Source of the DNA: a virus
Lineage: Duplodnaviria; Heunggongvirae; Uroviricota; Caudoviricetes
Strand: one strand, 5' to 3'
Virus record (IMG/VR): IMGVR_UViG_3300042868_003052
Span: 10,492 to 74,491 of that record
Length of the DNA: 64,000 bases
Shown: positions 2,640 through 57,859 of the stretch, piece by piece
Layout of the letters: each line of letters begins with the position of its first letter
Numbering within the stretch: position 1 is the stretch's first letter
The notes under the pieces: model-generated
Told to the model about the DNA's origin: nothing
Databases searched by the model: none
The model's input: the letters and a program-made list of their open reading frames with translations, nothing else
Made by a program: the position numbers and the translations under genes

Positions 2640-3354
2640 TAAAACCATTTCAATAAGCCCCAATAGGATTCTTATACAGCATAAAGTAGACTTGTGGAAG
2701 CTTGGCAGTTATATGGCTACTAAGTTTGATACAGAGCTGGGCTATCTGATGACAGATACAGCCGGTAATTTGAAAGCAGGCGGCTACTCTAAGTGTCCAA
2801 CTTTTTATGGAAGAAGTTCTGACCCTAGTAGCGGCATAGGCGATAAAGACAACGGGTGGTGGCCTACCGACCTAGTCTCTGGTGCGTTTAACTATTCTGG
2901 GCAAGATATCTATCTAGATATCCCTAGATGGGATCAATACAAACAAGTTGTTCAGACTTCATCGGGCTTTTCTAGACAATACTTTAGCTCATATCAGACA
3001 ATATATATGGGTAATACACCTGTCGGTACCTTTCGATGGACTGCAGCATACGTACCTGTCGGCACTGATAGTGAAGGCGGTACATATTACAATATGGCAG
3101 TTTGGGTAACAAATGTAAGTCTGTGGTCAGGCGCGATATCAGGTGTGTTTAGGTTTCCGTATGTAAATATAGATGCTTGGACAGCGACCCTAGATTATGG
3201 TGATGGGCCGTTTGTAGCGACATTTGGTCAATACGAGAAATATCAAGATGAGGGTGGAGGTTACTTTTACAGATATCCATCCCCAGTCTTCAATAACTTC
3301 TGTTTGATGTTCTTAAAGAATTCTGTAACGCTATCGATATCGGTGACAAGATGA
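2632..3354 (+). CDS. hypothetical tail/baseplate-associated protein
   Basis: 240-aa ORF, Gly/Ser/Tyr-rich, coupled to neighbours in tail module. Confidence 0.4.
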   Translation: MSNKTISISPNRILIQHKVDLWKLGSYMATKFDTELGYLMTDTAGNLKAGGYSKCPTFYGRSSDPSSGIGDKDNGWWPTDLVSGAFNYSGQDIYLDIPRWDQYKQVVQTSSGFSRQYFSSYQTIYMGNTPVGTFRWTAAYVPVGTDSEGGTYYNMAVWVTNVSLWSGAISGVFRFPYVNIDAWTATLDYGDGPFVATFGQYEKYQDEGGGYFYRYPSPVFNNFCLMFLKNSVTLSISVTR

Positions 3355-3800
3355 GTTTAAAAATATCCCAAAATCAAATACTAGTGCAGCGCGCAGATGG
3401 ATCTGTCAAGTTCACAAGTGACAACAAACTGATCTACCAAAAGTTTTTCAAGTCTGCAACAATTACAGTAGCAAGTGCTACAGTTAAAGAATCTTTTCAA
3501 GCGATGGGTGAAAAGGATTTTTTGATAATTTCAGTAAATATTGTAAGCAGTAACGGCAATGTGAATGGCAATACAGGCATAGTAGGTAAAGCTATTCCTG
3601 CTAACGGCTCACTGCTTATTGATGTTTATGGGCGTGCTGAAGGCAATAGCGGCGCTTGCGATATTGAGTACTTAGGTATCAATGTGTGCGGCTCTGATCT
3701 CGTCTTCAACACAATACGGTTCAACGCCGACGGTGTAATGTCTAAAGGTCAAAAGACGACTCAACTGACATACACTGCCGCAATTTTTAGTTATTTATAA
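3351..3800 (+). CDS. hypothetical tail-associated protein
   Basis: 149-aa ORF overlapping neighbours (ATGA). Confidence 0.4.
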   Translation: MSLKISQNQILVQRADGSVKFTSDNKLIYQKFFKSATITVASATVKESFQAMGEKDFLIISVNIVSSNGNVNGNTGIVGKAIPANGSLLIDVYGRAEGNSGACDIEYLGINVCGSDLVFNTIRFNADGVMSKGQKTTQLTYTAAIFSYL

Positions 3801-7297: not shown

Positions 7298-9538
7298 ATG
7301 AGAAAAAAGCTGATAGCTTCACTCAAGGAAAGACTAGACACTGAAGTTGGCGTACAAAACCCTGTTAAGTTCTTAAAGAACTACGAGGTTGAAACATACG
7401 TTGACACAGTGATTGCTGTCTTATATCTATACACCAGACCAAAGAAAGGACTAAACAAACAATCAATATATCTTGCAGAAATGATCTGTGCAATAGGTCA
7501 TGCTGTCAGGAATAAAGTTAAGGTGAAGCGAGATTCAGCCCTAGCCGCCAAATCAGGTGCGTTCATATTGTACACATTTGAACTGTTTGAAATTGTACAA
7601 GTTGTAATGGGTCAAGCTTCAAACGGACATGGTGGTTACGTAGTCCATGTTCTGAATGAAGATGCCATCTCTGCAATGTGGAATCAACTTGACCCTGAAA
7701 AGGTTGAGAAGCTTCCTTCTGAAACACCTTACGAACCCTGGACAACTGCAAAACACCCAACAGGTGCATTGTTGGTGAAAACAGGTAACAAAGATGTTAT
7801 CGATTCGTTGACAGTTGAGACTCATCCTATTGTGTTTAATTGCATAAATAAAGCACAAGCTGTAGGTTGGAATATCAATAAGGCTGTCTTTGATTTACAT
7901 AGCTGGGCACTTAGAAATAAGACTGATGCTTTTGCTGAGATTTGGGAGTTACAAAATGCTGAAGCTAGAACCACGAAGATGCGGGAAGCTAAGTCGATTG
8001 GTGATATTGCTAAACGTTTTCTTAACAAAACGTTCTATCACTTATACTACTACGATTTCCGTGGCAGGAAATACCCAGCTTCTGCGTATCTACATGAACA
8101 AGGGTCTGATCTTGCCAGAGGACTTCTCCTTCGATCAGATAAAAAGGCTATTGGAAAGGATGGTTTCTTTTGGCTTCTCGTTTCCATCGCCTCAAACTGG
8201 GCAGGGGATTCTGGTAGAGCTGACTCAGCCAAGACCGATAAAATTCCGCTTTCTGAAAGAGCCGCTTGGGTCTTAGATAACGAGGAAATCATCTTGTCCT
8301 ATGCTGAATCACCTAAGGTAAATCAAGGGTGGATGAAAGCTGACAAGCCTTGGCAGTTCATCGCTGCATGCTTTGAGCTGAGTAAGCTGCGTATCTGGCA
8401 ATTTGAGAATGGTGGAGACTTTGAAAACTATGACTATGAGTCTCATCTTGAGTGCTATATTGACGGTTCAAACAACGGTAGCCAGCATCTCTCAGCATTG
8501 ACTAAAGACGATATCACTGCACCTCACGTTAATCTTGTGCCATTACCTTTGCCAGGTGACCTGTACAAGTATGTCGGTGATCACGTCTGGGAGACACTTG
8601 CACAGCGTAGAGAGTCTTTGTCACCAGAAGATATCAAAGCCGCTGAAGTGTTTGTAGATACATTGATCGACTTTAAAAAGAAGATCCATGAGACACAACC
8701 TAGAAGTGAGCAGCGAAAAGAGTTGGTAGCTCAGATTCAAAGCTTTAAAGATAAGAACTCAAAAATTATCGATAAAGCAGCGATCATCTATTGGATGCGA
8801 ATCAAAGACGCGAAGCATCGTCGCAAGGTTGTCAAGAGGAATGTCATGACACTCCCCTATGGTGGTACTGCCTACGGGCTTGGTCAGCAGCAGATTGATG
8901 ATGCTAAAAAGCACGGCATTGACCTGCTGATGCATATGGAGCACAAGTGGGGTGCTTTCCTCGGGCGTGAGATATACGAGGACTGCAAGACATCCTTAAA
9001 GCGTCCAATGCAGCTACTTAGTGTGTTTGAGAGAGCAGGTCGTGAGGCTGAGGCTCGCGGTGAGTTCCTGCACTGGAATGTACCTGTTACAAACTTTCCA
9101 GTAGTTCAGAATTACACCGAAGGTAAGGTAAAGAAGATCTGGATTCAGTATGGTCCACCGATTGGTGAACGTCTTAATACAGGTTACTTTATCAACACAC
9201 TACAACTGTTTATTTGTCATATTGAAGATCCGATACCTTCAAAGGGTAAACAGGCTTCAGGTGCTAGTCCTAATGCTATACATAGTTTGGATGCAGCACA
9301 TTTGGCAATAACAGTAGACGCTTGTGACTTTCCTATCACAACGATTCACGATAGTTTCGGTTCACTACTAGCAGATATGCCAGTGTTGTTCAGAACAATT
9401 CGTGAGACTTTTGTTCAACTGTATGAGGCTGATCCATTGACATCTATGATAGCTGATATTAGAGGTGACATCTCTAATGTGCAATTTGGCAATCTAGATA
9501 TCAAACTAGTCCTTGAATCGGAGTATTGTTTCGCATGA
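7298..9538 (+). CDS. T7-like single-subunit DNA-dependent RNA polymerase (RNAP 1)
   Basis: Contains T7-type motifs: YDFRGRKYP (T/DxxGR), RKVVKRNVMTLPYGG (motif B), IHDSFGSLLADMP (motif C). C-terminus ...ESEYCFA resembles T7 ...DFAFA. Confidence 0.9.
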   Translation: MRKKLIASLKERLDTEVGVQNPVKFLKNYEVETYVDTVIAVLYLYTRPKKGLNKQSIYLAEMICAIGHAVRNKVKVKRDSALAAKSGAFILYTFELFEIVQVVMGQASNGHGGYVVHVLNEDAISAMWNQLDPEKVEKLPSETPYEPWTTAKHPTGALLVKTGNKDVIDSLTVETHPIVFNCINKAQAVGWNINKAVFDLHSWALRNKTDAFAEIWELQNAEARTTKMREAKSIGDIAKRFLNKTFYHLYYYDFRGRKYPASAYLHEQGSDLARGLLLRSDKKAIGKDGFFWLLVSIASNWAGDSGRADSAKTDKIPLSERAAWVLDNEEIILSYAESPKVNQGWMKADKPWQFIAACFELSKLRIWQFENGGDFENYDYESHLECYIDGSNNGSQHLSALTKDDITAPHVNLVPLPLPGDLYKYVGDHVWETLAQRRESLSPEDIKAAEVFVDTLIDFKKKIHETQPRSEQRKELVAQIQSFKDKNSKIIDKAAIIYWMRIKDAKHRRKVVKRNVMTLPYGGTAYGLGQQQIDDAKKHGIDLLMHMEHKWGAFLGREIYEDCKTSLKRPMQLLSVFERAGREAEARGEFLHWNVPVTNFPVVQNYTEGKVKKIWIQYGPPIGERLNTGYFINTLQLFICHIEDPIPSKGKQASGASPNAIHSLDAAHLAITVDACDFPITTIHDSFGSLLADMPVLFRTIRETFVQLYEADPLTSMIADIRGDISNVQFGNLDIKLVLESEYCFA

Positions 9539-10146: not shown

Positions 10147-10710
10147 ATGGCTATCATCAAAGACTGTGAACTGTGGTTCGTTAAAGCTGACCCAAAGCGT
10201 CCAAGCAACAAGTTCAATAAAGAAAACCCAACTTGGGAAACTCAAATCCGTACGACTTCTAAAGAAGTTAAGAAGTACTGGGAATCTCTCGGTTTGGCAG
10301 CTAAGGCTGTTGTACCTGACGAAGGTGCTCCATACTTCCGTGTCAACCTTCGCAAGAAGTCCATCAAGAACGATGGCGAACGCGCATCACCTGTCAAGGT
10401 TGTGAACGGTCACTTGGAAGATATCGATCCTAATACGATCGGTAACGGCTCTATTGGTCATGTTCGCATCTTCCAATACGAGTATGAGAAAGCAACTGGT
10501 GGCAAGGGTATTGCCAACGTGCTCATGGGTATCCAAGTTACAAAGCATATTGTCTACACTGCAAAAGCACGAGATGACGATTTCGGTATGACCGACAGCG
10601 AGACTATCAATCCTGAAGACGATGGTGATGATGCTCTAGCTGCTGTTTCTACACCGGCTGTTAAGACGCCAGTTGTCGACGTTAACAAGCGTCCTGACTC
10701 TGACTTCTAA
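10147..10710 (+). CDS. single-stranded DNA-binding protein, T7 gp2.5-like
   Basis: Start at internal ATG with RBS caaggaaa. Acidic C-terminal tail ending DSDF, as in gp2.5 (terminal Phe). OB-fold-like body. Confidence 0.6.
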   Translation: MAIIKDCELWFVKADPKRPSNKFNKENPTWETQIRTTSKEVKKYWESLGLAAKAVVPDEGAPYFRVNLRKKSIKNDGERASPVKVVNGHLEDIDPNTIGNGSIGHVRIFQYEYEKATGGKGIANVLMGIQVTKHIVYTAKARDDDFGMTDSETINPEDDGDDALAAVSTPAVKTPVVDVNKRPDSDF

Positions 10711-48217: not shown

Positions 48218-49798
48218 ATGGCTGTAAACGCTGCCCAATCTTCTGTTAAAACTGTAGCAGATCCGAATGGTGCGTATGACTCGATGAAGCCGCTTTGGAA
48301 CAAGAGCAGAGCAGTCTGTAGCGGGGAGCGTTTCGTTAAAGAATTTGATGGTGTCATTGATATCGTCCAGTTCCGTAACTTGCTCATCCCGTTCTCACCA
48401 TCGATGACGCAACCTCAATACAACTTCTATAAAGCTGAAGCTGAACTGCCTGGCATTACTGCCCAGTTTAGCAAGATGCTTGTAGGTGGTTTGCTACGTA
48501 AGCAACCTGTGTTGAGCTTGCCAGATACTGTGCCAAAAGAGGCTAGTGACTGGATTATGAATACCTTTGGTAAGGATGATTCACCACTAGCTGCCTTTCT
48601 TGACCAAGCTCTTTGGGAGGAAGTTCAAACATCACGGGCCTGGGTCTTCATTGACTACCCTGAGATTAAGAACCCTAACAGCTTGACTAAAGAAGATCTT
48701 GCTAAGTACAAACCCTACCCTGTGTTGCATAATGCAGAGTCTATCATCAACTGGCGTGTTCGTCAAGATGCATATGGTAAGACTGTACTTGACCGAGTGA
48801 TTATTCGTGGTATGGTAGAAGAATTCAAAGAAAACGAATTCCATGCTACCTACACTGACACTTGCTGGGTGCATGAATTGGATGAGGCTGGCTATTATCA
48901 GATACGTGTGTTTAAACGTGAAGATAAGACCACTAATATTCCAGTCATCGCAGGTCAACAACAGACAAAACACGGTACTGAAAAGTTTGTGTTCAAGGAA
49001 GTTGAAGTCATTACCAACATACTCGCCAATGATCAGCGTTTAACTGAAATTCCTGCTTGGCCTTTGAATGGCTCTATTGAACTTGTTGAACCAATGCTCT
49101 CACCTATTATTGATAAGGAAGTAGCACTGTATAACAAGATCAGTCGTCGAAATCACTTGCTGTATGGTGCTTCTACCTATACACCTGTAATTATCTCTGA
49201 CATGGGTGACGATGATTTTGATGAGATTGTGGCGGGTGGTCTTGGTACTTGGATTCGTCTACGTCAAGGTGATGATGCCAAGGTTCTTGAAACACCTACA
49301 GCTGCACTTCAAGATATGGATAGAGCTATTGCTGCTTCTGTTGAAGAGATGGCCAAGCTCGGCATCCGTATGCTGTCGCCTGAGGCTGCTCAGTCTGGTG
49401 TAGCTTTGGAAATCAGGAATGCTGCTCAGACAGCTCAACTTGGAACATTGAACAGTAAGATTAGTAACGTGATGAGTCAAATCATTGTGTTCATGATCAA
49501 CTGGCGCTATGATCTTGAGTTGAAAGTGTCTGATATTGATTTCTCACTGTCTGCTGACTTCAACCCAACACCTCTTGGTGCTGATTGGTTGCGTCTTGCT
49601 ACAGAGTGGTATCAAGCAGGCCTAATCCCACGTACTGTGTGGTTGCAAGTGCTTAAGCAAAACGACATTATCCCTCCTGACTATGACGATGAAACAGGTA
49701 AGCAAGAAATTAATAGCGATGAGCTTCTGAACAAACCAGCTGATACCGGTAACGGCGATTATGCTGGAAAGATGAAAGAGTTGCTAGATCGCAGCTGA
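48218..49798 (+). CDS. portal protein
   Basis: 526 aa. Position upstream of MuF-like, scaffold and capsid genes. Typical portal size and charged C-terminal tail. Confidence 0.55.
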   Translation: MAVNAAQSSVKTVADPNGAYDSMKPLWNKSRAVCSGERFVKEFDGVIDIVQFRNLLIPFSPSMTQPQYNFYKAEAELPGITAQFSKMLVGGLLRKQPVLSLPDTVPKEASDWIMNTFGKDDSPLAAFLDQALWEEVQTSRAWVFIDYPEIKNPNSLTKEDLAKYKPYPVLHNAESIINWRVRQDAYGKTVLDRVIIRGMVEEFKENEFHATYTDTCWVHELDEAGYYQIRVFKREDKTTNIPVIAGQQQTKHGTEKFVFKEVEVITNILANDQRLTEIPAWPLNGSIELVEPMLSPIIDKEVALYNKISRRNHLLYGASTYTPVIISDMGDDDFDEIVAGGLGTWIRLRQGDDAKVLETPTAALQDMDRAIAASVEEMAKLGIRMLSPEAAQSGVALEIRNAAQTAQLGTLNSKISNVMSQIIVFMINWRYDLELKVSDIDFSLSADFNPTPLGADWLRLATEWYQAGLIPRTVWLQVLKQNDIIPPDYDDETGKQEINSDELLNKPADTGNGDYAGKMKELLDRS

Positions 49799-49816: not shown

Positions 49817-50326
49817 ATGTTTAATTTAACGATTTACTCCAATTTAATTTCGGTGCTTGAGTACAATCCAGATACCGGAATCTTCAATTGGCTGATAAGC
49901 CCTAAAAGAGGCATTCCTGCTGGCTCTGTAGCTGGCTTCTTGAATAATGGTTATATCCAGATTTCGTATAAGCGAAAACATTACAACGCTCACACACTCG
50001 CGTGGCTTTACTGTAATAAAAACTTACCATCTGGTATTTTAGATCACATTGACTGTAACAAGTCTAACAACCGAATCAGTAATTTACGAATTGTTGATCA
50101 CACTTTGAATCGCATAAATACGTTAACTCGCCACGATAATACTTCTGGATACAAGGGTGTGTCTTACGACAAGAAGTCGAAAAAATGGCGTGCTCAAATC
50201 AACCATGACAAGCAGCGTATTTATCTAGGTGTATACGAGTCACCAGAAGAAGCTTTTGAAGCCTACTGCGAAATAGGTAAAGAGCTCTATGGTGAACATT
50301 TCAACAATGGTGAAAAGAATGATTAA
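49817..50326 (+). CDS. HNH_3 + AP2-domain homing endonuclease
   Basis: LDHIDCNKSNNRISNLR (HNH_3) and GYKGVSYDKKSKKWRAQI..RIYLGVYESPEEAFEAY (AP2 domain). Confidence 0.7.
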   Translation: MFNLTIYSNLISVLEYNPDTGIFNWLISPKRGIPAGSVAGFLNNGYIQISYKRKHYNAHTLAWLYCNKNLPSGILDHIDCNKSNNRISNLRIVDHTLNRINTLTRHDNTSGYKGVSYDKKSKKWRAQINHDKQRIYLGVYESPEEAFEAYCEIGKELYGEHFNNGEKND

Positions 50327-53300
50327 TTCAAATACACAGATTTTTGATAAGGCACTAGATCGCGCAGCCATGGTGCGTTTGTACGAAAGACGCGTCAACG
50401 GTAAAGTGGAACTTGTCATTGACGGTCATACCGTTAGGGTCGATAAGTTAATTCGAGAAGCCAATCTGTCTCAGAAAGGCTTTGAGAAACTCCGTGATGC
50501 GATTGATCTAGAGCTTCAATCAACATACAAAGAGGTGTTCAACACTTCAAAGAGATCTTTGCTAGATCTTGTCAACGATCAAATAAGTTTTACTTATCAG
50601 AACATTGAGTCTGCTATAGGTAAGATTTGGAAACCAAGCACACCGCAAAGGCGTGTTTCAGATGAGATTGTACTAGAGCGTCCACTTGCTGGTGATAAGA
50701 CTCTAGCTGCAGGTTGGGCTGGTGTCAGCGCCAACGAGAAAACTAGACTTGAGAGTGTGATTCGAAAAGGAATTGCAGAAGGTTCTACAGTAGAGCAAAT
50801 TGCCTTAGAGGTGCGTCGTGGTAATGTACATACGATAACACGCTCACAAAGCAAAGCATTGGTCGTTACTGCAATTACTAGTGTAACAGCACAAGCTGAT
50901 CACGAAGTCTACCGCGCCAACGAGAAGGCAATTCAGGGGTGGCAGTATGTGGCCGTCTTGGATGCCAGAACCACGCCCTTGTGCTCGCACCGAGACGGGC
51001 ATATCTACCCCATAAGGGACACGGCGCACTTGCCTCCGGCCCACTTTAACTGTCGCTCTACAACAGTTCCCGTGTTTAAATCCTGGGAGGACATTGGTAA
51101 GCTAGAGGGTGTTGCTCAAGTTAGACGTAGAAACCTTCAAAACCTAAGTAAGAAGCAGATTGCCTTTTATGATGGTCAGACACCACTACGTGAGACTTAC
51201 AATGACTGGCTTGCTCGCCAGACAACAGATGTGCAGCTAAGACACCTTGGCGAATACTCTAAAGTTGAGTTGTTTAGATCAGGTCAACTGACTGTTGATA
51301 AGTTCACTAATCCTGACGGTAATTCGTTAGGTATTCGTGAGCTGAGAGCCATGACAGACTCTGGCTATGACTTGCCAAATGACACAAAGAAGTTTGCATC
51401 TGCAAAAGCTAAGCTTGATGCTATGCAACTTGGAGCAGCCTCACCTGATGATTTCTTGTCAGATGAGAAGCTTAAGAAAACTTTGGTAGATTACTACTTG
51501 CTTCAGTCAGGCGAACTTGACGGTACGCTCTCGATGACTAACTATCGAGGTACTCTGTTACATGCAAAGAAGGCTGCTAAGACTAGAGTATTGTCGTCTC
51601 CACCTAGAGAAGATCAACTCAAGTTTAACCCAGTCACTGGAAGATATGAAGACATCCGTCTGTATCAACCGAATATTGGTGTACATAGTAATAACCGTCG
51701 TTTGCTTGAACAATCTGAAGTATTGAAACAAGCTGACAAAGACTTTATCATGTCTATTGATGCATCTCTTGAAAACAAGATGAGCATTAACGAACGTGCT
51801 GTTGTACTTGATAACCTACGTATTGTGTTTACACGATATCGTAATAATCCAGAACCTTGGGTTAACTTTAAGGCTGTTGTTCAAGCACAGATTAAGTTTG
51901 ATGTGATGAACGTATCTGATGCCATTGAAACACAACTCCGAAAAGACAGTGACCCGCTGAAACGTCTACTGCAAGATAACTATATTGATCCAGTGCTCGG
52001 TCCTGTACAGCTTGATGATTTACACAATAACTTCATCAAGAACATTACGGCTAAGAACCGATGGGAAGATAGTACTGCACCGAAGATTGCAAAAGAATTG
52101 CGAGATACTTTTGATGCAGTGATTCTTGAGAAGAACCCGTTTATTTGGAAACGAATTGATGGTCGTGACATGCAGCAGTTTTATCTGCGCTTTGCACATC
52201 GTTTGAGCTTAGCTGACAGCCCTGATCGTGATCAATTTGCTGTGGCTCTGGGTCGTGACCTTTACAATCTTGCCAACTTCAACGGTGATCGTAGAAAGTG
52301 GTATGATTTAGGCATGGCAATCTTGGATGATACCAAGGTTAACAAGCTATTCAAGATTGAGACTTTTGGTGTACAAAAACGACGAATGAAGAGCCGCCTT
52401 AGTGGTTCTTACTTTGGCCCTTATTATGACACACTTGCTTACAACATCCGTGTTACAGACCCTCGAATTCAAGAGTACGCTCAACTGACTCGTAAGGTTG
52501 ACTTAGGTCTGCGAGTAGCTGTCTTGAATGATTCAAACAAACTTGTGTTTAGAGAAGGCTTCAAAACCTACTTCGTAGATCGTGGAATCCTCGGTTTAGA
52601 AGACACTCGTATACCAATCACATCGACATCAAGCTTTAGTGATTTCCCAGAAGAGTTTGTAGATAAAAACATGGTGGATGCGCTTAATTGGGCATCAGAG
52701 ACAAAATACAAAGTGGATGAGGACTATTTTGACTTCATCAAGAAGCTGCTGTATTTTGAGGATGATAAAGGTAAAGCACAATACTACAATGAGTTGAATG
52801 AGTATCGTAAATTCATCTCAGCTCGTGGTGATGCATATGAACGTTTCAAAGCAATGGAATGGTTACGTGCAAAACGTGCAGCATTCAGTAATCATCCTTT
52901 TATCGATCACCGTGCTCGTATCTATGACAGAGGCTTAATTAGTCCACAGTCTGGTGAGACATTCCGTCCATTCTTGAATACCGCTGTTGAGCGTGACTTC
53001 AGCAAAGATGGCTATGACAACTTGCAAGATCAAATTGGTGCTTTTCTTGGTGGTCACAGTGATAAGCTTGAAGGTGCCTTTAACTCATTGACAATCACAG
53101 GTCGTCAGAAGATTGCTAGAAAGTATCGTGATGAGATGGTCAAGCTTGGCTATCACATGCGTAGGGCTAAGCCTGGTGATGTTCGTGCTGTACTTGAGTC
53201 TGAACTGACTGGCATGATTGATGGTGAAGAGCAAGGTAAATTCTTTCGATTTGCCATTGAGATGTCAAAGATTGATGAGTTCTTGGAGGGTAACTACTCT

Positions 53301-53569
53301 GCAAGAAACCTCGAACGACTGTCAAACTACAAGATAGCACTAGCACTAGAACAGGATGCTTCGTCCTCTGGTGCACAGATTATTGCACTGACTACTCGAA
53401 ACAAAGAGCTTGCTGAGCTTAGTAATGTAGTACCTACTACACAAAAGCGAAGGCTTTATGACGAGATTGCAGCGTCAACATACAATGACCCTGAATTTCG
53501 AAAGCTCAACCTGAAGCTAGGTCTGAACGAAAAAGACTTGCGTAAAGCTGCTAAAGCGCAGAACATGGT
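50289..53569 (+). CDS. MuF-domain / T7-like RNA polymerase fusion (RNAP 2), exon 1
   Basis: N-terminal 270 aa carry the Phage_Mu_F motif (WQYVAVLDARTTPLCSHRDG..PPAHFNCRST). Downstream carries RNAP motif A DASSSGAQI (T7 DGSCSGIQH) and the first half of motif B RKAAKAQNMV. Confidence 0.75.
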
Positions 53570-54431
53570 AGAATGTTGCCATGTATAAACCTCGTGAATT
53601 CAGGGAAAATCCCAAAGGGACAATCCTGAGCCAAGCTTAGACAGTAATGTCTTTGAAGGTGCAACGACTAAGACAAACGGTCCATATCGGATTATGAAGT
53701 CTGTAGAAATCATGCCGATTTCGAAGCGCGGGGACGTACTATTCCTTAGGGATGCAGACGTAAAAGATAGTCTAATCTATACAGTAATGTATAGCAGGAG
53801 TTAGCGTGAATTACGAAAAGCACTATATAGCTTTAATTGAAAAATACGGCACTACTAGTAGACCGTTTAAGGGTTATCATGAACGTCACCATGTCCTTCC
53901 TAAATGCATGGGTGGTAAAGATGTTTACGATAACCTGGTGTACTTAACGGCGAGATGTCACTTATTGGCTCATTGGCTGTTGATGAAAGCTTTTCCAGAA
54001 GTAAAAGGTTTAAAAATTGCTTATGCAACAATGTGTACGCGTGATGGTATAAAGCTGTCGCCCGTGATGTATCAAATTGCAAAAGATGCAGTTAGCGGCG
54101 ATAACTCTATGCTTGCGAGGGCTGTTGTGACACCTTTAGGTTCATTTCCTACAGTGGCTGCAGCGGCGATAGCGCACGGTGTATCAAAAGCCACTATTTC
54201 AAAGAAGGCAGGGAGCACTAGTGTACTTCATAAAGGCTATCACTGGGTAGACCATATAGTAAAGGGTGATGTAGCGGATGGTCGAAACGCGCATCACTTG
54301 AGGAAAGGTGTTAGAACACCTTTTGGAAATTTCGAATCGACACGTGAAGCTGGTAGAGTGCTTGGCATTAATCACTCTACAATCACAAAGCGCATAAAGC
54401 GTGGTGATGACGGCTACTCCTATATGAAATG
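53570..54431 (+). mobile_element. group I intron (about 862 nt) containing an HNH homing-endonuclease ORF
   Basis: Exon 1 ends in U (53569), intron ends in G (54431). P1: exon ACAUGGU (53563-69) pairs with intron GCCAUGU (53578-84) including a U.G pair at the splice site. P10: intron GAAUGU (53571-76) pairs with exon 2 ACAUUC (54433-38). Splicing restores RKAAKAQNMV-TFYG, equivalent to T7 motif B RSVTKRSVMTLAYG. Confidence 0.7.
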
Positions 54432-54432
54432 A
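53806..54432 (+). CDS. HNH homing endonuclease with C-terminal NUMOD-like DNA-binding repeats (intron-encoded)
   Basis: GTG start with SD aggag. HNH motif YHERHHVLPKCMGGKDVYDNLVYLTARCHLLAHW. HTH-like repeats GVSKATISKK / LGINHSTITKRI. Confidence 0.75.
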   Translation: MNYEKHYIALIEKYGTTSRPFKGYHERHHVLPKCMGGKDVYDNLVYLTARCHLLAHWLLMKAFPEVKGLKIAYATMCTRDGIKLSPVMYQIAKDAVSGDNSMLARAVVTPLGSFPTVAAAAIAHGVSKATISKKAGSTSVLHKGYHWVDHIVKGDVADGRNAHHLRKGVRTPFGNFESTREAGRVLGINHSTITKRIKRGDDGYSYMK

Positions 54433-55815
54433 ACATTCTACGGTGCTGGTGAACGAACTGGCATCATGAACGTAGAAGGTAAGCTGGCTAAAGCTCTTGG
54501 AAAAGATGGTAACACACTTGTTGTCAAAGCTGCAGATCGAGATGTCGTACTGAATGAAATCAGTGCAAGGGCAGCTAGGTATGAAAGGTTTGACCCAGAG
54601 ACAGCCGCTGAACTGAAGCAGTTACGTCAGGATGTTCGTGATGTGTTTAACAAAGGTATTGACCCTGGTGATGACATACTTGAACAGCTTTACTTTCTTG
54701 AACCTAAGACAAAAGAGTTGGTTGAGAAACTATCTCATTCTTATGATCGAGTTGTGACACCTGATGACTTCAAGCAGATTGCTCAGATTATGAGTGAGAA
54801 GCTTAGAGAGCAAGTACCTATCCTTAAAGACTTCACAAAGTTCTTTGGTCGCCTTGCAGAAGATTATCTTGCTTCGGCAAAACCTTCTAACAGCATGTTT
54901 GATTGGAAGACAATTGCAAAGTTAACACTACGTGGTAGCAAGAAGAAAGGCTACCGACTTCCAGACTATGTGAGTGAGATGCTCGGTCTGAAAGCTGGAG
55001 AGCCTGTCTCTGAAAAGCTACTGAAGCGGTTATCATTTTGGAAACCTGACAGTACACTAGCAGACTTGTTGTTTGGTGTTAAATCACCTGATAACAGACG
55101 TACTGGTGCAAAATTCTTGAAATTTGATATTGCACAAGTTAAGGATGTTTATGAGCTAGAGATTTTCTACGCTAATAAATTACCTAAGAGCTGGACGAAT
55201 GTACCTTGGGTTAACTTTGATGGTAAGACCATTGAGCAAAACTTTACACAAGCTTTTGAAGAGCGTTTAGTGTATAAGAATGCTGATGGTGAGTGGACTA
55301 CCAACATTTTGCAAGTACCTCAGAAGACTGAGGCTACGTGGTGGGAACAAGTGATTAATAAATCTGGGAAGATTAATGACATCGCTGATGCATCGAAGGC
55401 TAGGACAGCTTTTGCTGTTAACGGTAACCATTCAAATGATGCTGTTATTGTTAAGAAGTTTCACTTGTGGGGTAGAGCCTCTGGCACACCTACATCTACC
55501 ATTCATGATGCGTTCTTTGCCAATGCTGCTGACATGCTTAAAGCTAGAGATGCCCTCCGTGGTATCTATGCTGAGACTCTGAGTAAGAACGTCATTTTGA
55601 TGACACTTGAAGAGATGAAAGCACGAGGCTTGCCTAAAGAGCTTTACGACAAATATTTAAATGAGGCTATTGAAACAGGTCTAATACCTATCCCTGGGCG
55701 CTCTAGGGTGGGTGGTAAACTTCTAAAGGATTCAGATATTCTGACACCGTCTGATATTCTTAAGAAAGTACCAAAAGGTTTTAATGAAGATTACGGTTGG
55801 TACGGCGTTGGCTAA
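54432..55815 (+). CDS. T7-like RNA polymerase (RNAP 2), exon 2
   Basis: In-frame continuation TFYGAGERTG.. has no start codon of its own. Contains NGNHSNDAV (T7 FVHSQDGS) and motif C IHDAFFANAADMLKARDALRGIYAE (T7 IHDSFGTIPADAANLFKAVRETMVDTY). Confidence 0.75.
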
Positions 55816-55867: not shown

Positions 55868-55973
55868 GGTGTGAAATCGATTTAGATTATATCTTGTCGG
55901 TTGATTTAATTTAATTCTAGCAAGTAGACAGATAGTATCTCCTACTTCTGAGTTGTACTCAAAAGGAATGAAA

Positions 55974-56657
55974 ATGGCTGATAACCAAAACCAAAACGAA
56001 AACACTGACCCTAACAACGCCAATGGTGGTGAGGGTGGTGAAGACAAGAACAAGCAACAGCAGAACAGCAATGTCCCTGACATCGAGAAGCTGGTTCAAG
56101 AGAAACTGGATGAGTCCTTGAAGGACATCAAAGGTAAACTTGACAAGGCTTATGGTGCTCGTGACGAGGCTCTCAAGAAGGTTGCTGAGTTCGAACAGGC
56201 TAAGCGCGAAGCTGAATTGAAGCGACTGCAAGACGAAGGCAAACACAAAGAAGCCTATGAAATGCAGCTTGCTGAAGAACGTGCAAAACGTGAAGCACTT
56301 GAGAAACGCAATGTCGAACTGACTCGCGATATCAGTGTGCGCAACGCTCTTGCATCTCACCCTTTCCGTAATGATAACGCCTCTGAGATGGCTTATCGTG
56401 AAATCGTGGGTAACCTTGTCCAAAATGAAAAGGGCGAGTGGGTTCACAAAACTGGAGTCTCTGTAAAGGACTTCATCAAAGCTTTCGCTGAGAATGATGA
56501 GAACGCATTCTTGTTTAAACCAAAGATGTCTTCTGGCTCTGGTTCTCAAGGTACTCAAAAGAACTCTGACAATTCAGCTGGCAAGTCTATCTTCCAACTG
56601 TCTCAAGATGAAGTTCTCAAACGCGCTCGTGAAGGTACGCTTCGCGGCACAAAATGA
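55974..56657 (+). CDS. scaffolding protein
   Basis: Highly charged coiled-coil (KREAELKRLQDEGKHKEAYEMQLAEERAKREALEKR). Immediately upstream of the capsid gene. Confidence 0.55.
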   Translation: MADNQNQNENTDPNNANGGEGGEDKNKQQQNSNVPDIEKLVQEKLDESLKDIKGKLDKAYGARDEALKKVAEFEQAKREAELKRLQDEGKHKEAYEMQLAEERAKREALEKRNVELTRDISVRNALASHPFRNDNASEMAYREIVGNLVQNEKGEWVHKTGVSVKDFIKAFAENDENAFLFKPKMSSGSGSQGTQKNSDNSAGKSIFQLSQDEVLKRAREGTLRGTK

Positions 56658-56671
56658 AACAAGGAAATTAA

Positions 56672-57859
56672 ATGACTGCACGTTCTAACGTTGCTGGTGC
56701 TGACCAGTATGTCTTGCAAGAAGCCATTAGTGCTTACTCTGACGAGGCTTACACCAACGCCAAGAAACTGACTGGTACCGGTATTGTGGGTTCTAACCCT
56801 AATATCGATACTGGCACTGAGACTTTTATTGGCCAAGTTCGTTGGATGAAACCTCTGAACCCTACGGTCAACGTAGCCTCTCTCACTGACGCGACTGATG
56901 GTCAAAAGACTAATTTCGCTTCTGAATTCCTCAACTATGTCAAGACCGTTCGTACGCATGGCGCTGAAAAAGTCAACATGCAACAAGTGGTCACTCAACA
57001 AGACGGTCTGGCTAAGATTGGTCGTGACTTCGCTGAAACTCGTTCGCAAGACGAACACAATGCGCTGTTGGCTGTCCTCAAGGGTGTTGCCATTTCTGAA
57101 GCTCTGTATGGTGCAGCTGCAGCTTCTGGTTCTGCAGGTCTTGGTGGCCAAACCTTCGACAACGATCCTACTAGCAAGCGTTATGGCTTCTATGTGGATC
57201 TTGGTGCAAGCAAGCCTGTTACCGCTGCTACCACCGCAGTGCAGGGTGCAGCCCGTGCTGAAAGCTTCTTGAATGCCTTCGGTATGGCTTACAAGGACTA
57301 TGAGCCTGAGTACGCTTACCTTGTGACTTCTCCTGAAGTTATGGCTTCTTTGCGTTCTGCCAACTTGGTTGATGAGACCAAGGTTACTGATGGTATGGTT
57401 GAATTTAGCACCATCTTTAACGGCAAGTTCCGTCTGATTCAGACTCGCGCTGCTCAAGGCTTGACTACTGCTGAACTGGCTAAGATCAACACTGGTGGCG
57501 GTGTGGATATTGTCGGTAACAAGACTTCGTTCATTGTGCTCCCTGGTGCTTTAGCAATGCAGCAACTGGCTGTCCCTGATACTGTGGAAATTACCCGTAA
57601 CGGTAATGCCTACAAGGGTGGCGGTTCTACCTCTGTGTGGTACCGTTGGGGCTATGTGTTGGCTCCTGCTGGCTATGATTGGAAAGGCACTCAAGACGCA
57701 TTCCCGTCTGATGCTGACTACATGAAGGTTGTGGCTGCTAACGGCACTACCAGCGCACTGTCGGCTTCTGCTGATGGCCTGTCTGGTTTCCAAGGTACTT
57801 GGGGTCGTAAGTTCAGCTCTGCTTTGAGCTTGGGCATCTTGCCTGTGTTCCACTCTTAA
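56672..57859 (+). CDS. major capsid protein
   Basis: 395 aa after the scaffold gene. Strong RBS aaggaaattaaATG. Ala/Gly/Thr-rich composition typical of an HK97-fold MCP. The internal minus-strand 284-aa ORF is rejected. Confidence 0.6.
   Translation: MTARSNVAGADQYVLQEAISAYSDEAYTNAKKLTGTGIVGSNPNIDTGTETFIGQVRWMKPLNPTVNVASLTDATDGQKTNFASEFLNYVKTVRTHGAEKVNMQQVVTQQDGLAKIGRDFAETRSQDEHNALLAVLKGVAISEALYGAAAASGSAGLGGQTFDNDPTSKRYGFYVDLGASKPVTAATTAVQGAARAESFLNAFGMAYKDYEPEYAYLVTSPEVMASLRSANLVDETKVTDGMVEFSTIFNGKFRLIQTRAAQGLTTAELAKINTGGGVDIVGNKTSFIVLPGALAMQQLAVPDTVEITRNGNAYKGGGSTSVWYRWGYVLAPAGYDWKGTQDAFPSDADYMKVVAANGTTSALSASADGLSGFQGTWGRKFSSALSLGILPVFHS

Follow-up and report, generated by a model that had tools for sequence, protein, structure and literature searches.

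A predicted group I intron with an HNH endonuclease gene, inserted at motif B of the gene for a T7-like phage RNA polymerase fused to MuF

Background

Group I introns that harbor HNH endonuclease genes and reside at the catalytic motifs of phage polymerase genes represent a classical form of mobile element. The introns of phages SPO1, SP82 and Bastille lie at a catalytic motif of a family-A-type polymerase gene, encode HNH proteins with C-terminal DNA-binding modules, and display a patchy distribution. Those found in the T4 genes td, nrdB and nrdD (sunY) belong to subgroup IA2, the phage-type group that is defined by two extra helices, P7.1 and P7.2, which follow P7 and precede the 3′ strand of P3, a core layout that characterizes phage subgroup IA introns; in sunY the open reading frame (ORF) is found 3′ of the catalytic core, and the ribosome-binding sites of T4 intron endonucleases are sequestered in RNA structure. 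We describe here a probable element of this type, unannotated in the public record, at positions 53570–54431 of a stretch of 64,000 nucleotides (hereafter ‘the window’) that corresponds to positions 10,492–74,491 of the IMG/VR virus record IMGVR_UViG_3300042868_003052, a member of the Caudoviricetes. The element interrupts motif B of a gene that appears to encode a single-subunit, T7-like RNA polymerase (RNAP) fused to a MuF head-morphogenesis domain, and we assign a probability of about 0.88 to the reading that splicing removes it as a group I intron.

The window intron shares with the SPO1, SP82 and Bastille introns all three of the properties named above, and differs from them in its host, theirs being DNA polymerase genes and that of the window an RNA polymerase gene. 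With the T4 introns it shares an IA-type core, the P7.1/P7.2 helices at the position given above, and the apparent use of P10 in 3′ splice-site choice, while it differs in having no P2, in encoding an HNH rather than a GIY-YIG protein, and in its host gene and phage lineage. The HNH-bearing group I introns in the DNA polymerase genes of SPO1, SP82 and Bastille (I-HmuI, I-HmuII and I-BasI) are cited in PMC11620839; a search of the PDB with the window endonuclease found no sequence-level match to I-HmuI.

A closer parallel in terms of the host gene is provided by the jumbo phage PhiPA3, in which gp210, an HNH endonuclease whose gene lies within a putative group I intron interrupting the RNA polymerase beta-subunit gene, attacks the homologous site in a co-infecting relative and interferes with that competitor (PMC11620839). 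Both loci place an intron-encoded HNH protein beside the catalytic residues of a phage RNA polymerase; the PhiPA3 enzyme is multisubunit, whereas that of the window is a single-subunit, T7-like polymerase fused to MuF. By analogy, a similar attack on co-infecting relatives is plausible, given the many intron-less relatives described below.

With regard to the host protein itself, the interrupted gene appears to follow the logic of the virion RNA polymerase of coliphage N4, a packaged early polymerase, in that a T7-like polymerase is combined with a capsid-targeting module, is encoded among head genes, and is a second RNA polymerase of its phage. The N4 enzyme differs in its size (approximately 3500 amino acids) and in having no MuF fusion, and packaging of the window protein is suggested by this analogy. 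N4-like virion polymerases are confined to N4-like phages, and many fusions of MuF to effectors (‘polyvalent proteins’) have been catalogued, with no MuF–RNAP fusion among those listed (PMC5512222). The literature that was searched contained nothing specific on a MuF–RNAP fusion, and no report of a group I intron in a single-subunit, T7-like phage RNA polymerase gene was found in that incomplete search.

Anatomy of the interrupted gene

The features upon which the argument depends are listed below, together with the evidence for each.

50289–53569, plus strand: exon 1 of the MuF-RNA polymerase gene, with motif A (D1023), R1085, K1089 and M1093 (ORF list, Pfam, PHROG)
53563–53584, plus strand: P1 hairpin, whose loop (53571–53577) is the 5′ strand of P10 (sequence, Rfam alignment, pairing in relatives)
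53586–53588, plus strand: in-frame UAA that ends unspliced exon 1 (sequence; stops in all seven introns at the same site)
53590–53794, plus strand: ribozyme core (Rfam RF00028, minimum-free-energy (MFE) fold, covariation on 11 introns)
53796–53805, plus strand: Shine-Dalgarno AGGAG (53796–53800) and 5′ strand of a P9.1-like helix, AGGAGU-U-AGC (sequence, pairing in seven introns, MFE fold)
53806–54432, plus strand: putative homing endonuclease ORF of 208 amino acids with a GTG start (Pfam, PHROG), whose TGA (54430–54432) overlaps the 3′ splice site
54413–54421, plus strand: 3′ strand of the P9.1-like helix, GCU-ACUCCU, in the last codons of that ORF (G-Y-S-Y) (pairing comparison, MFE fold)
54431–54438, plus strand: omega-G (G54431), predicted 3′ splice site (54431/54432) and 3′ strand of P10, AACAUUC (54432–54438) (sequence, P10 covariation)
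54432–55815, plus strand: exon 2, with the third base of Val1094, TFYGAG (Y1097, G1098), motif C (IHDAFF) and the C-terminus (Pfam, PHROG, T7 motif C alignment, homologues)

The ORF that contains exon 1 (50289–53588, plus strand) reads ...KAAKAQNMV, continues for the five residues ECCHV, and stops at TAA 53586–53588, while the sequence TFYGAGERTG begins at 54433, immediately behind the stop codon of the endonuclease ORF and without a start codon of its own. A first-pass annotation of this DNA, which had proposed a group I intron within motif B, rested in part upon these two observations, and both are borne out by the window sequence, as is the valine codon (GUA) that it predicted from the joining of G53568-U53569 to A54432. 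The junction is placed at 53569/54432 because group I rules call for a U before the 5′ splice site and a G at the end of the intron; the ambiguity of that placement is limited to one A, common to the start of the intron and the start of exon 2. The insert so defined is 862 nt in length, and its final base is G54431.

At the 5′ end, the exon strand ACAUGGU (53563–53569) pairs with the guide GCCAUGU (53578–53584), with a U53569•G53578 wobble at the splice site; the intervening GAAUGUU (53571–53577) pairs with AACAUUC (54432–54438) at the start of exon 2. The 7-bp P1, its wobble and the terminal G had all been read correctly in the first pass, as had the P10 pairing (GAAUGU/ACAUUC), the length of which must be corrected from 6 to 7 bp by addition of U53577–A54432. 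The description of the endonuclease ORF likewise holds: its GTG (53806) lies 5 nt after AGGAG, and its frame is that of exon 2, unlike exon 1. Translation of unspliced exon 1 would end approximately six codons into the insert, at a UAA that sits in the conserved P1–P3 joining segment AUAAA, and would yield a product of 1099 amino acids.

Ligation of U53569 to A54432 is predicted to join ...KAAKAQNMV to TFYGAGERTG, such that the exons read ...KAQNMVTFYGAG... and a polymerase of 1554 amino acids (approximately 175 kDa) is restored. The predicted spliced RNA reads ...CAGAACAUGGU followed directly by AACAUUCUACGG..., the 24-mer across the junction is CAGAACATGGTAACATTCTACGGT, and the corresponding peptide is AQNMVTFYGAGER.

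The ribozyme core

The first-pass annotation had suggested Rfam models as a means of locating a group I core between 53570 and 54431, and one is found there: RF00028, with a curated gathering threshold of 50 bits, matches 53560–53794 with 66.3 bits over model positions 1–253 of 253 (E 2.8e-16 for the region and 1.3e-14 at the scale of the whole window), and is the sole Rfam family matched in the 64 kb. The helices assigned to the core, all on the plus strand, are the following.

P3: 53590–96 with 53727–33
P4: 53600–05 with 53624–29
P5: 53610–13 with 53617–20
P6: 53630–32 with 53658–60
P6a, with a GUAA loop: 53639–43 with 53648–52
P7, a pseudoknot with P3: 53666–70 with 53768–72
P7.1: 53671–74 with 53699–702
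P7.1a: 53679–83 with 53689–93
P7.2: 53706–11 with 53717–22
P8: 53734–37 with 53758–61
P8a: 53741–45 with 53749–53
P9, with a GUAA loop: 53777–83 with 53788–94

The nested helices of this core are recovered by the MFE fold. A mini-intron from which the ORF was deleted folds with z = -3.26, with none of 200 shuffles folding as well, and its fold contains P10 and the long-range helix at the 3′ end in addition to the core helices. The P7.1/P7.1a/P7.2 extension occupies 53671–53722, between P7 and the 3′ strand of P3, and the structure as a whole supports the assignment of 53570–54431 as a phage IA-type group I intron that contains P7.1/P7.2 and has no P2.

The P3–P6 part of the core (53579–53705) is 73–81% identical, over 90–115 nt, to unannotated stretches of other phage records. 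These occur in Vibrio phages (qdvp001 and others) and in approximately 39 Pseudomonas phages of the PaoP5/K8-like type, and presumably represent group I introns akin to this one that reside in different genes.

Related introns and covariation

Scans of IMG/VR with exon 2 and the endonuclease yielded 85 related loci, which are designated below by the prefix L where they need to be told apart. A megablast search of 52800–55300 against 50,697 phage records gave no match, and the phage itself is therefore not in that collection. In EBPR siphovirus 1 (JF412302) the intron and its ORF are 68% identical in DNA sequence to the window, with the same splice junctions; an intron with an ORF is found at the same position in five further distinct IMG/VR contigs (L027, L032, L063/64, L081 and L083), and an ORF-less intron of 260 nt occupies the same nucleotide position in L068. 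Related introns are also located 11 nt upstream (L046, L079/80) and 8 nt downstream (L084–86, L079/80) of the window site. In all seven introns at the window site, an in-frame stop codon is encountered 1–5 codons into the intron.

The structure was drawn by hand and evaluated on an alignment of 11 related introns, with controls in which the 3′ partners of each helix were slid by 1–3 columns. The core was paired in 90.3% of cells, versus 32–44% in the slid controls, and 40 of its 68 pairs exhibited changes on both sides, versus 7–15; the observed covariation score was reached by none of 500 shuffles. P3 was 100% paired with compensatory changes in 5/7 pairs, as was the P7 pseudoknot with 2/5, in which, for example, GACUA/UAGUC of the window is replaced by GAUCA/UGAUC in L084. 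Pairing in P7.1, P7.1a and P7.2 was 96–100%, 96% and 77%, respectively, again with compensatory changes. The U that precedes the intron and the G that ends it were present in 11/11. A covariance model built from this alignment found 19 copies in the loci and one in the window.

For the helices that involve the exons, the comparison was made on the six distinct introns at the window site. P1 and P10 together were 95.2% paired (42–60% in slid controls), with compensatory changes in 7/14 pairs and with five of the seven P10 pairs changed on both sides; the U•G at the 5′ splice site was invariant (6/6), and is present at two neighboring sites as well. The P10 guide and its partner at the start of exon 2 vary in concert, as is apparent from the following pairs.

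Window: guide GAAUGUU, exon 2 AACAUUC
L027: guide GAAAGUU, exon 2 AACUUUU
L032: guide GAGAGUU, exon 2 AACUUUC
L068: guide AAGUGAG, exon 2 CUCUCUU

Among the relatives the guide follows synonymous changes in the Thr/Phe codons of exon 2, and this tracking by an intron sequence of silent changes in an exon would be hard to explain unless P10 is used.

Uninterrupted homologues

Most relatives carry an uninterrupted gene at the junction (for example, the alleles in L004 and L021, around ...AAAGCTCAAAAYATGGTWACWTTCTAYGG...). In 15 of the 22 uninterrupted homologues inspected across this region, the sequence is DLRKAAKAQNMVTFYGAGERTGI, identical to the predicted ligated product, and the alignment of relatives lacking the insertion thereby agrees with what the first-pass annotation had proposed; the others are continuous, with 1–6 substitutions, the cultured roseophage DSS3_VP1 (Naomviridae) having six.

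The DSS3_VP1 gene (L002 1247–5638; NC_055826, 21242–25633) encodes an uninterrupted, 1463-amino-acid ‘head morphogenesis’ protein, 34% identical, that includes the polymerase part (DLAKGAKAANMVTFYGAG); the Naomviridae paper that describes this phage makes no mention of an RNA polymerase. The EBPR siphovirus 1 locus (L001; JF412302, 25771–31144) is annotated as gp47 ‘head protein’, gp48 ‘HNH endonuclease’ and gp49 ‘hypothetical protein’; these correspond to exon 1, the intron ORF and exon 2, and the intron is unannotated in GenBank. Among the 120 best homologues in the database, approximately 70 are gene calls of 400–490 amino acids that start in or just after motif B, beginning MVTFYGAG..., MQNMVT... 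or after YGAG. Judged from such gene calls, motif B is often interrupted, and the interruption is systematically misread in annotation as the start of another gene.

Two other kinds of insertion in relatives, located approximately 90 amino acids upstream (320–410 nt) and 25 amino acids downstream (approximately 700 nt) of the junction, were considered as introns and rejected; they are regarded as protein insertions because they are open in frame and match neither Rfam nor the covariance model of the related introns. Examples are an insertion of approximately 136 amino acids, 90 amino acids before the junction, in L016 (5317–5724), and one of approximately 233 amino acids, 25 after it, in L074 (5302–6000); such insertions occur in about 25 other loci, and neither is present in the window.

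The host gene: a MuF-fused RNA polymerase

Exon 1 contains a head-morphogenesis domain (Pfam Phage_Mu_F, amino acids 154–259, E 1.8e-14; PHROG head morphogenesis, E 2e-66), and the two exons divide a polymerase between them. Positions 359–552 of phrog_414 (RNA polymerase) align with exon 1 (amino acids 840–1064) and positions 655–787 with exon 2; the Pfam family RNA_pol (PF00940), with a cut-off of 22 bits, matches exon 2 with 23.3 bits and exon 1, under the cut-off, with 14.4, and is carried by most homologues in a large protein collection. A profile of the spliced family matches T7 RNA polymerase (E 2e-5) through the DxRGRxY...PQ motif, motif A (EQDASSSGAQ versus FDGSCSGIQ of T7) and motif C (IHDAFF versus IHDSFG). 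A single-sequence search of the PDB with the spliced polymerase returned nothing relevant. An AlphaFold prediction of the spliced, 680-amino-acid polymerase region (mean pLDDT 76.9, pTM 0.70) was compared with the PDB by Foldseek, and the best 50 matches were all T7 or mitochondrial RNA polymerases (probability 1.00, TM about 0.45); the spliced product thus models as a single T7-like RNA polymerase, in which helix 207–222 spans the junction and ends at the Tyr-Gly of motif B.

In the 1554-amino-acid protein, motif B reads R1085-x3-K1089-x3-M1093-V1094-x2-Y1097-G1098, with the codon for V1094 split by the intron. This is the R-x3-K-x3-M-x3-Y-G spacing that had been claimed for the restored gene. 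The same spacing is found in motif B (RRKVVKRNVMTLPYGG) of a conventional T7-like RNA polymerase of 746 amino acids that is encoded elsewhere in the window (7298–9538, plus strand; phrog_414, E 5e-114). The claim that the insertion lies inside motif B is thereby upheld by the motif spacing, by the model of the spliced product, and by the equal spacing in the conventional polymerase.

Alternative explanations

Several observations weigh against the reading of the insert as a spliced intron. P2 is absent, with just AUAAA (53585–53589) between P1 and P3 and with the Rfam P2 columns deleted, and the intron is filed as ‘IA-like’ rather than strict IA2 because of this; a U-U mismatch is present in P1 of EBPR siphovirus 1 and L027; the HNH match to Pfam lies barely over its cut-off; the window phage contains an in-frame ATG (54466) in exon 2 that is picked by gene callers; and the 3′ splice site is 637 nt from P9. 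Because of this separation, the choice of the 3′ splice site depends on the P9.1-like helix, which was 94.6% paired versus 39–62% in slid controls, with three pairs changed on both sides, in a count of seven sequences that were anchored by eye and in which the Shine-Dalgarno function and coding place constraints of their own on the two strands; its single-sequence energies in RNAduplex did not differ significantly from those of shuffles (p 0.02–0.47).

The lack of P2, the long distance from P9 to omega-G and the modest case for the P9.1-like helix would each be compatible with an intron that is spliced in vivo but is not autonomous, and that needs a protein cofactor in the form of an intron-encoded maturase or a host chaperone. 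Against this stands the persistence, at the same or neighboring sites in L068 and L079, of ORF-less cores of 257–260 nt, for the maintenance of which the encoded protein is therefore not needed, as well as the in vitro self-splicing of phage IA introns, those of T4 and Twort among them. We regard dependence on a cofactor as unlikely.

A dead intron that leaves a split polymerase is, in our view, very unlikely. Such a locus would produce proteins of 1099 and 449 amino acids (the latter from ATG 54466) that assemble in trans, or a MuF protein without polymerase activity; the in-frame ATG, its use by gene callers, the listing of three proteins in the source record, and the many exon-2-only gene calls among database homologues could all be cited in its favor. 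However, the break would fall inside the motif B helix and separate K1089 and M1093 from Y1097 and G1098, and the ATG is not conserved: exon 2 has no in-frame ATG in its first 50 codons for five of the seven introns at this site. Moreover, the core, P1 and P10 remain paired by virtue of compensatory changes, some of which track synonymous exon codons, and this would be expected only with selection for splicing.

The insert might also have been an intein, or a free-standing endonuclease gene between two genes, since homing endonuclease genes occur in both settings and a free-standing HNH gene lies just upstream (49817–50326), and both are rejected: an early in-frame stop (TAA 53586–53588, approximately six codons into the insert) and an ORF in a frame other than that of exon 1 make a continuous polypeptide impossible, as the first-pass annotation had argued from the frame, while a covarying group I core precedes the ORF and its flanks are the halves of one polymerase.

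The intron-encoded protein

The intron ORF is supported as a homologue of HNH/NUMOD1 homing endonucleases by an HNH motif at amino acids 19–55 (PF01844, 25.1 bits, cut-off 21.4), a NUMOD1/helix-turn-helix DNA-binding module at amino acids 174–199 (26.1 bits, cut-off 22.8), and a match to phrog_655 ‘homing endonuclease’ (E 3.6e-30). The HNH core, with the motif ERHHVLPKCMGGKDVYDNLVYLTARCH, aligns with the HNH domain of group II intron maturases, and a single-sequence search of the PDB returned weak HNH matches. The proposal that the intron carries an HNH endonuclease therefore stands, with one amendment: the ribozyme core is wholly 5′ of the ORF, which lies 3′ of P9 and outside the core, in the loop of the P9.1-like helix.

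That helix is found in relatives as AGGAAU/AUUCCU, and as AGGAAA/UUUCCU in a downstream-site intron; its 3′ strand ends 10 nt before omega-G, and the ORF-less intron of L068 displays a short CGGAG...CUCCG hairpin at the corresponding position. There is a modest case that it represents a P9.1-like stem whose loop contains the ORF; such a stem may place the 3′ splice site next to the core and, in folded RNA, conceal the ribosome-binding site.

Mobility and the distribution of insertions at motif B

The closest relatives of the exons (L003–L009, 75–78% amino acid identity) are without the intron. The intron carriers are no closer in their exons, which are 62–72% identical in nucleotide sequence, whereas their intron cores are 71–84% identical, and the endonucleases are 77–83% identical in amino acid sequence, such that the intron core and endonuclease are at least as conserved as the exons that flank them. 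This patchy distribution fits horizontal spread by homing, and is no proof of it.

The relatives contain at least three intron insertion sites within 19 nt of motif B. In L046 (1545–2416) an intron with an endonuclease ORF is located 11 nt upstream of the window site, after KAAKA, and in L084–L086 (approximately 2748–3648) introns with endonuclease ORFs lie 8 nt downstream, inside the Phe codon. L079 (630–1161, identical in L080) contains tandem ORF-less group I introns of 258 and 257 nt that are separated by a mini-exon of 17 nt (CAAAATATGGTCACCTT), and excision of both would restore KA/QNMVTF/YGAG in frame (slashes mark the introns). In L068, three group I introns (1–255, 657–1610 and 1853–2112) occupy a single polymerase gene: one after the PQSGETF motif and before RPFLNT, one directly after the catalytic Asp of motif A (EQDA/SASGAQ) with its own HNH ORF, and one, without an ORF, at the motif B site of the window.

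Genomic context and a second polymerase

The genes that surround the interrupted polymerase are as follows.

48218–49798: portal gene, upstream of the interrupted gene
49817–50326, plus strand: free-standing HNH gene (phrog_99, E 1e-63), whose end overlaps the start of the polymerase ORF (50289) by 38 nt
55953–56657: scaffold gene, downstream of the interrupted gene
56672–57859: major head protein gene, downstream of the interrupted gene

The source contig is 74,491 bp in length, and in its annotation exon 1 is an ‘SPP1 gp7 family putative phage head morphogenesis protein’ and the other two ORFs are hypothetical. The phage encodes two single-subunit RNA polymerases, which are remotely similar (hhalign E 0.0013), and by its sequence and position the ‘RNAP’ that is interrupted is the MuF-fused enzyme of the head-assembly module, distinct from the polymerase at 7298–9538. 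The MuF fusion and the location among head genes suggest, by analogy with N4, that this polymerase is packaged in the virion. MuF-fused polymerases appear to be widespread in environmental phages, Naomviridae included, where they are annotated only as ‘head morphogenesis’. It is possible, and at present a tentative proposal, that the combination of a MuF domain with a deeply divergent T7-like polymerase, encoded between the portal and scaffold genes of phages that have a conventional T7-like polymerase as well, constitutes an unrecognised class of virion-delivered enzyme, in which motif B would be a battleground of introns. The endonucleases of these introns could then act in interference competition among co-infecting relatives, as in PhiPA3, and the rate of splicing could determine how much truncated MuF protein, relative to full-length polymerase, is packed into the capsid.

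A proposed pathway for splicing and homing

The following pathway is inferred, with respect to catalysis, timing, translation masking and homing, from the anatomy of the locus and from established group I chemistry. In a late transcript, the 225-nt core (53570–53794) would fold first, and the end of exon 1 would pair with the internal guide as P1; attack after U53569 would come from an exogenous guanosine that is bound in P7, and the guide loop would then pair with the start of exon 2 to form P10. The P9.1-like helix would loop out the 627-nt ORF and offer G54431 to the G-site, and ligation of the exons would generate a message for one polymerase of 1554 amino acids. The endonuclease would be translated from its own Shine-Dalgarno sequence and GTG, with the ribosome-binding site becoming masked once the P9.1-like helix forms, and would presumably cut or nick intron-less motif B alleles of co-infecting relatives, repair of which would copy the intron into them.

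Significance

If the predicted splicing takes place, the three proteins that are annotated in the source record, and in GenBank as gp47, gp48 and gp49 of EBPR siphovirus 1, become one 1554-amino-acid MuF-RNA polymerase and an intron, and dozens of database ‘proteins’ are exon-2-only artefacts. The single-subunit phage RNA polymerase would join those polymerase genes that have been colonised at their catalytic motifs by homing introns, and the related loci document how a compact IA-type ribozyme that lacks P2 covaries in nature. The host gene and its multiple insertion sites, that is, a MuF-fused second polymerase and a motif B hot-spot that includes tandem introns, may merit more attention than the intron itself: the host is probably a second, capsid-borne RNA polymerase in a widespread group of uncultured phages, and as such would alter the view of early transcription in these phages.

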